Position numbers: made by a program. This document shows positions 36,001 to 37,934 of a DNA stretch of 37,934 nt, piece by piece. The stretch lies in IMG/VR virus record IMGVR_UViG_2534682329_000010, one strand, 5' to 3'. Source of the DNA: a virus. Taxonomy: Duplodnaviria; Heunggongvirae; Uroviricota; Caudoviricetes. How positions within the stretch are numbered: position 1 is the stretch's first letter; each line of letters begins with the position of its first letter.

Positions 36001-37934
36001 GCCCCGCCCGCTTTGCCTTACGATATTCGTCATAAACTTTGGGGTCGTACTGAAGTTCCCCGCCGGATGCCTCTTGCAGGCGGATCGCGCGACCTTCAGG
36101 AACCAATTCCCCCCATTGAGAAACAGCAGATGGATCAACACCAGCAGCTTTCGCTACTTTGGCTTTCGTCCCATAAAAATTAATTACGTCTGATTTAAAC
36201 ATCACCCCTCCAAAGTTGAGTTTTCTCAATAGTAATAACTAAAGGAATCTCAAGTCAAGGGTTATTAAGATATCTAAATATGAACGAGAAAACTTTAGGT
36301 CAACGAATTAGAGAAAGACGCAAACAGGTTGGTTTAAGTCAAAACGATTTAAGCAAAGCTGCTGGCGTATCTGGCTCATCAATTTCACTATGGGAAAGCG
36401 ACCATACAGCCCCGCGCGGGCAAAATTTGCATCGCCTGGCTGAGGTATTGCAATGTTCACCAACTTGGATACTATTTGGTGACGAGGATAAAACACCAGA
36501 TCCACCAGTTGCACTCAACAGCGCCTTAGACTTATCGGAAGATGAGTTGGAGATATTGCGATTGTATCGCGCACTTCCAAAATCAGAGCAGCAAGCACAA
36601 ATCAGCGAACTCCGTGCCCGCGTTGAGAATTTTAATCGCCTGTTCACCGAGCTACTAGAAGCTCGCAAACGTAACAAACATCAATAACCCCCTTCACAAA
36701 TTTTAAAGCCTTACATTTCAATGTATTGGCTTTATTTTGCATTAAATATTGAGTTTTCTCATTAAAAATTCTTGACCAATTTTAATGAGGAAACTAAATT
36801 ATCATCCATCAAGACACCGCACGGTGTTCTCAGCAAACAGTTCCGCTACCCCGGCGTTAAGGGGAAATGAGGTCAACATGGATACTATCGATCTTGGCAA
36901 CAACGAATCTCTGGTATGTGGCGTGTTTCCCAATCAGGACGGCACATTCACCGCCATGACGTATACCAAAAGCAAAACGTTTAAAACCGAAGCTGGCGCA
37001 CGTCGCTGGTTGGAAAGAAACTAAGGTGAGTGATATGGATTTCGACACAATCATGAAAAAGGCTTACGAAGAATACTTCGAAGGCCTTGCCGAAGGCGAA
37101 GAAGCTCTCAGCTTCAGTGAGTTTAAACAGGCGCTTTCCAGTTCGGCAAAATCTAACGGCTAACGGGGTTAAAGATGGAATTTAAAGATTTACCACTATC
37201 AATCCAGGAGATTGCAGCACAGACACTCCGTCAACGCCTGAACGAACTTGCATTGGAATCGGTAACGAAAAAAGACACTGATAATATAGCTCGTAATGTG
37301 CGCGATGCGTTTACCGGATTGTACTCTGTTTCGGTAACAAACAACCAGGATACTGAAGAAGCTGCAAAGCGGATTGCCTCGGCGATGGGTTTTTATGTCG
37401 AGGAAAAGTATTCAAAAAAAGAATTCTGGAAAATGGCCAAACGCATCGCAGAGCGAGGTGAAATGCTCTCTGCATCAGGGGATTCATTTTATAACGAAAA
37501 AACTGATAACTCCTGTTTGCGTGATTTGCTCTCGCTGCTTGATAAGTTCGGAATAATAATGACCGGCACTGCTCTGGCTGATTTCACTTATAGCGCAATT
37601 TGTCATAATGGAGAACCATGTCCGCCAGAATTAATAATCACCCCCGGCAATCATCCGAGGGTAAAAATACGAGCGATTCAGGAGCACTGGTTTAATCCAG
37701 TTCCACAAGACGAGGACGCGGTAAAACCTCTATAGGTCCCGTATAGCCTGACGCTCTTTTGACATTGAGAATTTTATTTAACTTGTCAGCCTGATACTGA
37801 CTTGGTTTCACAAATATCCCATCAAGTTTTGATATATGGAATACACCGTGTTTCGGGCAATCAAAAATATAATAACCATTCTTCTCTGAAAAATCAGACG
37901 AAGAATTACAGGCTGGGCATAGTTTTGTTGGCAT

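Follow-up and report, generated by a model that had tools for sequence, protein, structure and literature searches.

The DNA examined here is a stretch of 37,934 nucleotides (the window) from an Escherichia coli prophage of the class Caudoviricetes, recorded in IMG/VR as IMGVR_UViG_2534682329_000010, and near its end lies a predicted immunity region in which a short repeated DNA word flanks a repressor gene. The repressor gene (36280-36687, plus strand) encodes a protein of 135 amino acids with an N-terminal domain of the helix-turn-helix (HTH) family HTH_3 in Pfam (E = 1e-16), and the best match among solved structures is the N-terminal domain of P22 C2 (E = 2e-15). The Pfam search returned only HTH families for this protein and no Peptidase_S24 match, that is, no domain for RecA-stimulated autocleavage was found. 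The neighbouring cro-like gene (35975-36202, minus strand) encodes a 75-residue DicC homologue of the Pfam family P22_Cro (E = 5e-18), and the same 228-nt coding sequence is called by the Prokaryotic Genome Annotation Pipeline (PGAP) in an identical E. coli region. An HTH_3 repressor on the plus strand diverging from a P22_Cro-family gene on the minus strand is the arrangement of a lambdoid switch. Behind the cro-like gene follow YdaT/cII-like, O-like (with a DnaT domain) and lambda-P-like genes. On the other side of the repressor gene, ydfA (36878-37024, plus strand; DUF1391, E = 2e-29) and ydfB (37035-37163, plus strand), both named by PGAP in the identical region, are the first genes of a leftward-type operon (36878-37163) that is predicted to be repressed. 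The dicB gene is found past the end of the window, downstream of these two in the 99.8-100% identical region of E. coli.

The window contains just two exact copies of the 13-bp word TTGAGTTTTCTCA, both on the plus strand (36216-36228 and 36749-36761). The first copy lies within the 77-bp gap between the cro-like ATG (36202, minus strand) and the repressor ATG (36280, plus strand), and the second is found 62 bp past the stop codon of the repressor gene, with 10 bp separating it from the -35 element TTGACC (36772-36777) further downstream. These positions bear out an earlier interpretation made without database searches (the sequence-only reading), which had described an exact 13-mer on both sides of the repressor gene, with the second copy just past the gene and ahead of a TTGACC-N17-TAAATT promoter, except that it had begun the first copy at 36215, one base ahead of the true start at 36216. 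It had also called the repeat palindromic. The TGAG/CTCA arms are indeed present, but they flank an asymmetric TTTT centre, and the word is a dyad rather than a full palindrome; in copy 1 the arms reach 5 bp (TTGAG...CTCAA), and in copy 2 the symmetry is broken at the last base (CTCAT).

Given that 174 words recur among the 13-mers of the whole window, the bare repeat says little, and it is the placement that informs. When the 77 bp between cro and the repressor gene were compared, on either strand, with the 190 bp between the repressor gene and ydfA, the longest common word was 13 nt, a shared length attained in 0.09-0.16% of 20,000 composition-preserving shuffles (P ~0.001). The 9-mer core AGTTTTCTC has three occurrences in the window, all at the immunity locus, where 0.32 would be expected and none of 100 shuffles reached three. 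When up to two mismatches were allowed, six matches to TTGAGTTTTCTCA were found in the window against 1.1 expected, one of them at 36786-36798 on the minus strand, 25 bp beyond the second exact copy.

We scored every 14-mer in the window for matches to the half-sites of TTGAG-N4-CTCAA, with a threshold of at least 8/10. The whole window contains 19 such sites, where 14.5 would be expected. The two non-coding stretches (267 bp together) account for five of these, against 0.16 expected and a maximum of two in 300 shuffles, while the remaining 14 in the rest of the window compare with about 14.4 expected. Three sites lie between cro and the repressor gene with centres 24 and 25 bp apart, and two lie at the downstream promoter, 36 bp apart. 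Both sites of the sequence-only reading therefore stand, in a set of about five rather than two.

A consensus promoter scan of 36100-36950 called exactly two promoters, one on each strand. The cro promoter (PR-like, after the rightward promoter of P22; 36229-36258, minus strand) consists of TTGACT (36258-36253), an 18-nt spacer and TACTAT (36234-36229), and its -35 element, AGTCAA on the plus strand, is invariant in the window, P22, Buttiauxella, K-12 and the PPompW phages. O1 (like OR1 of the P22 right operator, OR, and like Oc of K-12; 36216-36229, TTGAG-TTTT-CTCAA, 10/10) holds the first 13-mer, abuts the cro -10 and covers the predicted start (near 36222, minus strand). The earlier statement that this copy overlaps the rightward promoter has to be recast, cro being leftward in the window. 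O2 (OR2-like; 36240-36253, TAAAG-GAAT-CTCAA, 8/10) lies within the cro promoter spacer and just reaches the -35 element, and O3 (OR3/Oa-like; 36265-36278, TTAAG-ATAT-CTAAA, 8/10) is a palindrome that ends 1 nt ahead of the repressor ATG and overlaps the -10 of a putative repressor promoter described below. The three sites form a multipartite operator over both divergent promoters, as in lambdoid phages.

The second called promoter (pL/dicBp-like; 36772-36800, plus strand) reads TTGACC (36772-36777), a 17-nt spacer and TAAATT (36795-36800), and is predicted to drive ydfA-ydfB and the downstream genes from a start near 36807. It is covered by a second operator cluster, so that the other lambdoid hallmark, operators over a pL-type promoter beyond the repressor gene, is also present. 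The OL2-like site (after the P22 left operator, OL; 36749-36762, TTGAG-TTTT-CTCAT, 9/10) holds the second 13-mer and ends 9 nt upstream of the -35, and the OL1-like site (36785-36798, ATGAG-GAAA-CTAAA, 8/10) lies in the pL spacer and overlaps the -10. OL1 is the site able to occlude RNA polymerase at this promoter; the sequence-only reading had named the exact copy ahead of the promoter and had overlooked the degenerate copy in the promoter core. No third OL site of at least 8/10 was found upstream of OL2 in the TTGAG-N4-CTCAA scan. A 20-nt inverted repeat around the -35 is OL1 and OL2 combined and arises because the two dyad operators lie in opposite orientation. We also considered it as an RNA or cruciform element and rejected this, the extended arms being confined, apart from the window, to a small number of relatives.

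The P22 record annotates OR1-3, PR, PRM, the RM 5' end, OL1-3 and PL, and the window aligns with these features almost without gaps. Residues 1-72 of the repressor are 47% identical to P22 C2, the alignment ending at residue 72, and the Cro-like protein is 47% identical to P22 Cro. The P22 OR reads ATTAAAGAACACTTAAAT .. ACTAAAGGAATCTTTAGT .. ATTTAAGATGACTTAACT-ATG and the corresponding DNA of the window reads AGTTGAGTTTTCTCAATA .. ACTAAAGGAATCTCAAGT .. ATTAAGATATCTAAAT-ATG, with shared hexamers at the PR -35 (TTGACT), PRM (AGGAAT/TAAGAT) and PL (TTGACC-N17-TAAATT, identical spacing). O1 has the same position as P22 OR1; O2 shares 12 of 14 bases with the OR2 core TAAAGGAATCTTTA at the same position; O3 is the homologue of OR3 in position and sequence, and the OR2/OR3 pair as a whole is near-identical to O2/O3. 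On the left side, P22 OL2 (ATTTAAGTTTTCTTCAAA) aligns with OL2 of the window, and OL1 takes the same position in both. Both operator sets are built of 5-bp half-sites around a 4-bp centre, with OR centres in P22 that are 23 and 25 bp apart and an OL1-OL2 spacing of 35 bp, compared with 24, 25 and 36 bp in the window. Because of the almost gap-free alignment with the P22 OR, O2 and O3 are homologues of experimentally defined operators. By homology to the PRM and the RM 5' end of the P22 record, we infer a PRM-like repressor maintenance promoter (36243-36271, plus strand, AGGAAT-N17-TAAGAT) with a predicted start at about 36277 and a near-leaderless transcript (leader of 3-4 nt); the consensus scan of 36100-36950 did not call it.

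The likeness to P22 does not extend to DNA specificity. The strongest sites, O1 and OL2, have TTGAG/CTCA in the window where P22 has TTAAG, so that the specificity differs, and helix 3 reads VSGSSISLWES in the window and VSNVAISQWERS in P22, with differences at 5 of 12 positions. The window thus falls outside the P22 immC specificity group with its TTAAG-N4-CTTAA half-sites, and O2 and O3 only resemble OR2 and OR3. The 135-residue repressor ends in a short helical tail, whereas the 216-residue P22 C2 has a cleavable C-terminal domain; P22 has OL1-3, whereas no third OL site of at least 8/10 was found in the window; and the operon behind pL is ydfA-ydfB-...-dicB in the window and consists of the early-left genes in P22.

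We wondered how the sites vary with the repressor that would read them. A scan of genome contigs gave eight loci, and the resulting comparison of sites with helix 3 covers about seven lineages. At two Buttiauxella loci the repressors are 75-76% identical to that of the window and have a helix 3 of the same type, VSDSSISLWES. Amid flanks that cannot be aligned, these loci retain (A/C)TTGAGTTTTCTCAAT at each of the two places, and their promoter spacer contains TTGAGAAAACTAA; O1 is identical there, and the OL2 equivalent is ATTGAGTTTTCTCAAT. Where helix 3 of the repressor reads xxHVxxSQWE, as in K-12 Qin, Citrobacter sp. NCU1, the PPompW phages and Stenotrophomonas phage BUCT709, TTAG-N6-CTAA palindromes stand at the same three positions, and in P22 these positions hold TAAG-N4-CTTA palindromes. 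Citrobacter braakii, with helix ISHATISLWES, has an intermediate site set. A host-factor site or a chance repeat would not covary with the repressor helix. The 13-mer is very probably the binding site of the repressor of this E. coli prophage.

The E. coli K-12 prophage Qin has the identical gene order, with dicC leftward and dicA, ydfA and ydfB rightward. DicA is likewise a 135-residue repressor, 56% identical over residues 5-132, and a near-identical LQCSPTWILFGDEDK motif and the C-terminal helices are common to both proteins, which places the window repressor in the DicA/DicC module. K-12 DicC is 70% identical to the Cro-like protein; its C-terminal 45 residues are nearly identical, and the differences are in the N-terminal HTH. 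The HTH regions of both proteins and the intergenic DNA are thereby replaced relative to K-12, as in a classic immunity-module mosaic. The K-12 operators stand at the same places, namely right after the cro -10 (Oc, the position of O1), upstream of the -35 of TTGACC-N17 and in the spacer. The K-12 promoter dicBp (TTGACC-N17-TAATCT) is the equivalent of the pL-like promoter, and a dicBp-type promoter followed by ydfA, ydfB ... dicB is a further mark of the module. The operators themselves do not match: the K-12 site is TTGTTAGTCATAACTAACAA, with TTAG-N6-CTAA as its core, and its positional counterpart in the window is TTGAGTTTTCTCAA. The recognition helices are also different. Since the K-12 operator specificity is not shared, the window is assigned, from its sequence, to a heteroimmune DicA/DicC (Qin-type) immunity region of the P22-immC/Qin kind.

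The K-12 locus provides experimental background for this assignment. Oc is a DicA site in vivo; changing single bases in it abolishes binding, and DicA bound there acts as a repressor of dicC and an activator of dicA (PMC3441716). Reg-Seq recovers a DicA site at dicCp (PMC7567609). DicA, which has no Ala-Gly cleavage site, also represses dicBp, and the antirepressor Rem relieves this repression; the phage mEp460_ev081 carries dicAC, dicB, dicF and rem (PMC10448788). In the account given in that source, Bejar et al. likened the dicA/dicC locus in 1988 to lambdoid immunity regions with three operators per promoter.

Lambda, which the sequence-only reading had taken as its model, shares the layout. 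It likewise has a divergent repressor/cro pair around a tripartite operator with a spacing of about 24 bp, a further operator cluster over a promoter that lies past the repressor gene and is read in the same direction, and the logic of a bistable switch, which in the window is a prediction. However, neither its operators nor the C-terminal domain of its repressor show a detectable sequence relationship to those of the window, and lambda cI has the RecA-cleavable domain that the window repressor lacks. The OR-OL distance is 2.4 kb in lambda and about 0.53 kb in the window. The OR/OL reading itself is retained, with P22 immC and Qin DicA/DicC as the nearer models.

By description alone, the window also resembles the Gifsy-type switches, which likewise combine a short repressor without a cleavage site with a small antirepressor encoded elsewhere on the prophage; according to Lemire et al. 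2011, as summarized in PMC10448788, such short repressors are controlled by antirepressors. A homologue of K-12 Rem is encoded in the window (29878-30138, minus strand; tblastn, 71% identity over 83 residues, E = 1e-35), next to a hokD-type toxin open reading frame (ORF; about 30356-30511, minus strand), an arrangement also present in Qin. The search for a LexA box ahead of the Rem-like gene found none, a point of difference in the Gifsy comparison. This candidate antirepressor is the likely induction route for a non-cleavable repressor, its function being predicted from that of Rem. A 193-residue protein with an ORF6N domain (26874-27455, minus strand; Pfam, E = 1e-20), a family often annotated as phage antirepressor, is a second candidate inactivator of such a repressor.

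Based on these comparisons, we consider it highly likely that the two 13-mers belong, as O1 and OL2, to the operators of a prophage immunity switch of the P22/Qin type and are the strongest sites among them. Several points weigh against this interpretation. O2, O3 and OL1 reach just 8/10, as do about 14 chance sites elsewhere in the window, and their putative operator status draws on position, conservation and homology to P22. O2 is the weakest of the operator assignments, and in Buttiauxella its right half is not conserved, the -35-proximal half alone being kept. The exact copy past the repressor gene is placed upstream of the -35, where alone it would not block RNA polymerase, and the 36-bp spacing of OL1 and OL2, about 3.4 helical turns, gives no obvious same-face geometry. 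In K-12, an in vivo assay gave no binding of DicA to Om and Oa, two sites predicted from the sequence (data not shown in PMC3441716), which makes occupancy of O2 and O3 by the repressor uncertain; these two may be Cro sites or may need cooperativity. Finally, the 13-mer is absent from the searchable literature, and the operators of mEp460 likewise have no literature match.

We infer the binding of the repressor and Cro, the preference of each for particular sites, the transcription starts and the induction route as follows. In the lysogen, dimers of the DicA-like repressor would bind the TTGAG-N4-CTCAA sites. Repressor at O1 (and O2) would occlude the leftward cro promoter, and repressor at OL1, probably with the aid of the stronger OL2 that lies 36 bp upstream, would occlude the promoter of ydfA-ydfB-...-dicB. 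O3, which overlaps the -10 and the start of the near-leaderless repressor promoter, would serve shut-off by Cro or autoregulation, and the DicC-like Cro, as the opposing partner in the switch, would read the same regions. Because the repressor has no autocleavage domain, induction would be expected through an antirepressor, such as the Rem homologue about 6 kb away, or through spontaneous switching.

It should be noted that O3 and the Cro recognition helix may not always travel with the repressor. The O3 palindrome is kept in Buttiauxella and in C. braakii, and the helix D(P/R)SAVSQW of Cro is common to the window, Buttiauxella and C. braakii, whereas the C. braakii repressor helix and O1/OL sites differ from those of the window. 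Because of this sharing, the switch could contain two partly separate codes, with the repressor reading the TTGAG-type O1, OL2 and OL1 and Cro reading the P22-like TTAAG-ATAT-CTAAA of O3. If so, repressor/O1 and Cro/O3 would be independently exchangeable, and phages could be heteroimmune for the repressor and cross-reactive for Cro. The comparison covers few lineages and the half-site consensuses overlap, and we regard two such codes as unlikely.

A related explanation makes the Cro-like protein the main reader of the TTGAG-type sites and has the repressor rely on different or further determinants, so that the 13-mers would be Cro sites. The shared Cro helix just described fits this explanation, as does the failure of DicA to bind two of the three predicted K-12 OR sites (PMC3441716), and chromatin immunoprecipitation sequencing of K-12 DicC placed its two strongest peaks on either side of dicA (PMC11430063). 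However, Oc, the K-12 equivalent of O1, is the very site bound by DicA with single-base sensitivity (PMC3441716), and between the window and C. braakii it is O1, OL2 and the repressor helices that differ, while the Cro helix is nearly the same. Since the lambda, P22 and 434 proteins share operators, Cro binding is also more a refinement than a true alternative, and the 13-mers are improbable as sites mainly for Cro.

Returning to the operator set of an immunity switch, its sites are conserved among the sequences of this immunity type that were compared. The immunity region is 100% identical to that of E. coli NY1601, its immunity-specific 321 bp are present in 797 of 5426 complete E. coli genomes (~15%), and in phages HannyBb and mEp460_ev081 the region is 91-92% identical with the sites intact. 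IMG/VR contains 358 relatives, from which 74 region-spanning loci were fetched; these reduced to 43 distinct sequences, or 44 with the window. Among the 44, the mean number of minor alleles per column is 0.31 in the 70 site columns against 2.56 in the 109 other non-coding columns (Mann-Whitney P = 3e-5) and 1.0 at third codon positions of the repressor gene. O3 is invariant in 44/44. In O1 a single column of 14 varies, in 2 of the 44, amid hypervariable flanks, and OL2 is kept with a few variants while its flanks vary. In the large majority of the relatives OL1 reads ATGAGAAAACTAAA, which has a single mismatch to the 13-mer; the G of the window is a rare variant in the central, presumably non-contacted, part.

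This conservation bears on whether the repeat could be the relic of a P22-like ancestor in a decaying prophage whose switch has fallen into disuse. Many DicA/DicC loci, Qin among them, do lie in cryptic prophages, and the window is mosaic relative to the closest genome. However, constraint is stronger on the sites than on synonymous positions in the gene for the repressor; mEp460_ev081 and HannyBb, phages that form plaques or were induced, have these sites too; the repressor, cro, cII/YdaT-like, O-like and P-like genes are all intact; and even the Qin switch is still functional (PMC10448788). Together these points make a relic very improbable. It is hardly credible that the motif merely happens to flank the repressor gene and is bound by a nucleoid or regulatory protein of the host (IHF, Fis or H-NS-like), as the sites, although A/T-rich and although H-NS/Cnu and Fis/Hfq are implicated at the K-12 dicA locus (PMC3441716, PMC10448788), change with the phage repressor recognition helix across immunity types in the same host species and match the P22 operators in dyad geometry and position.

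Three further matches to the motif were considered as operators and rejected. An exact copy of the 9-mer core, within GAGAAAACT at 36285-36298, lies 20 bp beyond O3 and is kept in E. coli relatives and lost in Buttiauxella; its AGTTTTCTC core falls within repressor codons 3-5 (36286-36294), matches 6/10 half-site positions, and the codons differ in Buttiauxella, and it is probably coincidental or at most auxiliary. A perfect TTGAG-N4-CTCAA dyad, TTGAGACGACTCAA, of which about 0.04 would be expected in the window, lies at 22600-22613 with a G+C-rich centre, inside a small ORF that is broken by a stop codon, just upstream of the terminase genes and a long way from the immunity region; it may have arisen by chance or may be an outlying repressor site. 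The word TTGAGTTTTATCA at 26355-26367 (minus strand), one mismatch from the 13-mer and equal to an OL2 variant found in relatives, is also far from the immunity region, within an ORF (25912-26631) for a T-rich, apparently membrane protein of 239 residues with no Pfam match, and is probably a compositional coincidence.

Two transcribed features accompany the downstream promoter. After the repressor gene, RNA folding predicts a terminator-like hairpin followed by UUUU (36704-36738, plus strand; -11.3 kcal/mol, z = -3.2, 1 of 200 shuffles as good), which a simple terminator scan did not call and which varies little among same-immunity sequences; it probably terminates repressor transcripts ahead of the pL-like promoter. 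The leader between that promoter and ydfA (36808-36877) is well conserved and occupies the position of nutL in P22. It has two potential hairpins, CACCG..CGGTG and CCCC..GGGG, with other but complementary sequences in Buttiauxella, Citrobacter and BUCT709. For these leader hairpins the alignment fold was weak, the single-sequence fold was no better than shuffles and Rfam gave no match, and no known RNA family was found across 35900-37934.

Beyond ydfB, a 186-residue ORF (37175-37735, plus strand) with no Pfam match occupies the place of K-12 ydfC, and a convergent Cys-rich ORF (37692-37934, minus strand) overlaps its end and reaches the window edge. Relative to NY1601 the window is a mosaic: 2796-14976 and 32739-37934 are 99.8-99.9% identical, four short blocks within 22.3-32.3 kb are 93-98% identical, and no match was reported for 1-2795 or for the rest of 14977-32738, including all of 14977-22279. 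A related prophage joins lambdoid early genes and lambda-like head genes with contractile-tail (P2/Mu-like) genes. Qin is cryptic, whereas the window prophage looks complete.

What sets this switch apart is its operator sequence and the predicted DNA specificity; in architecture and logic it is otherwise a textbook case, and modules of this kind are very common. The understanding of such switches is unchanged, the architecture having been known from P22 and lambda for decades and recognized in dicA/dicC in 1988. The analysis defines the probable operators and promoters of an immunity type present in ~15% of the complete E. coli genomes and also in two or more temperate phages that are functional, and these may be used for prophage annotation, for the prediction of heteroimmunity groups and for the design of reporters or orthogonal repressor-operator pairs. 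This immunity type controls a cell-division-inhibitor operon of the dicB/dicF type.

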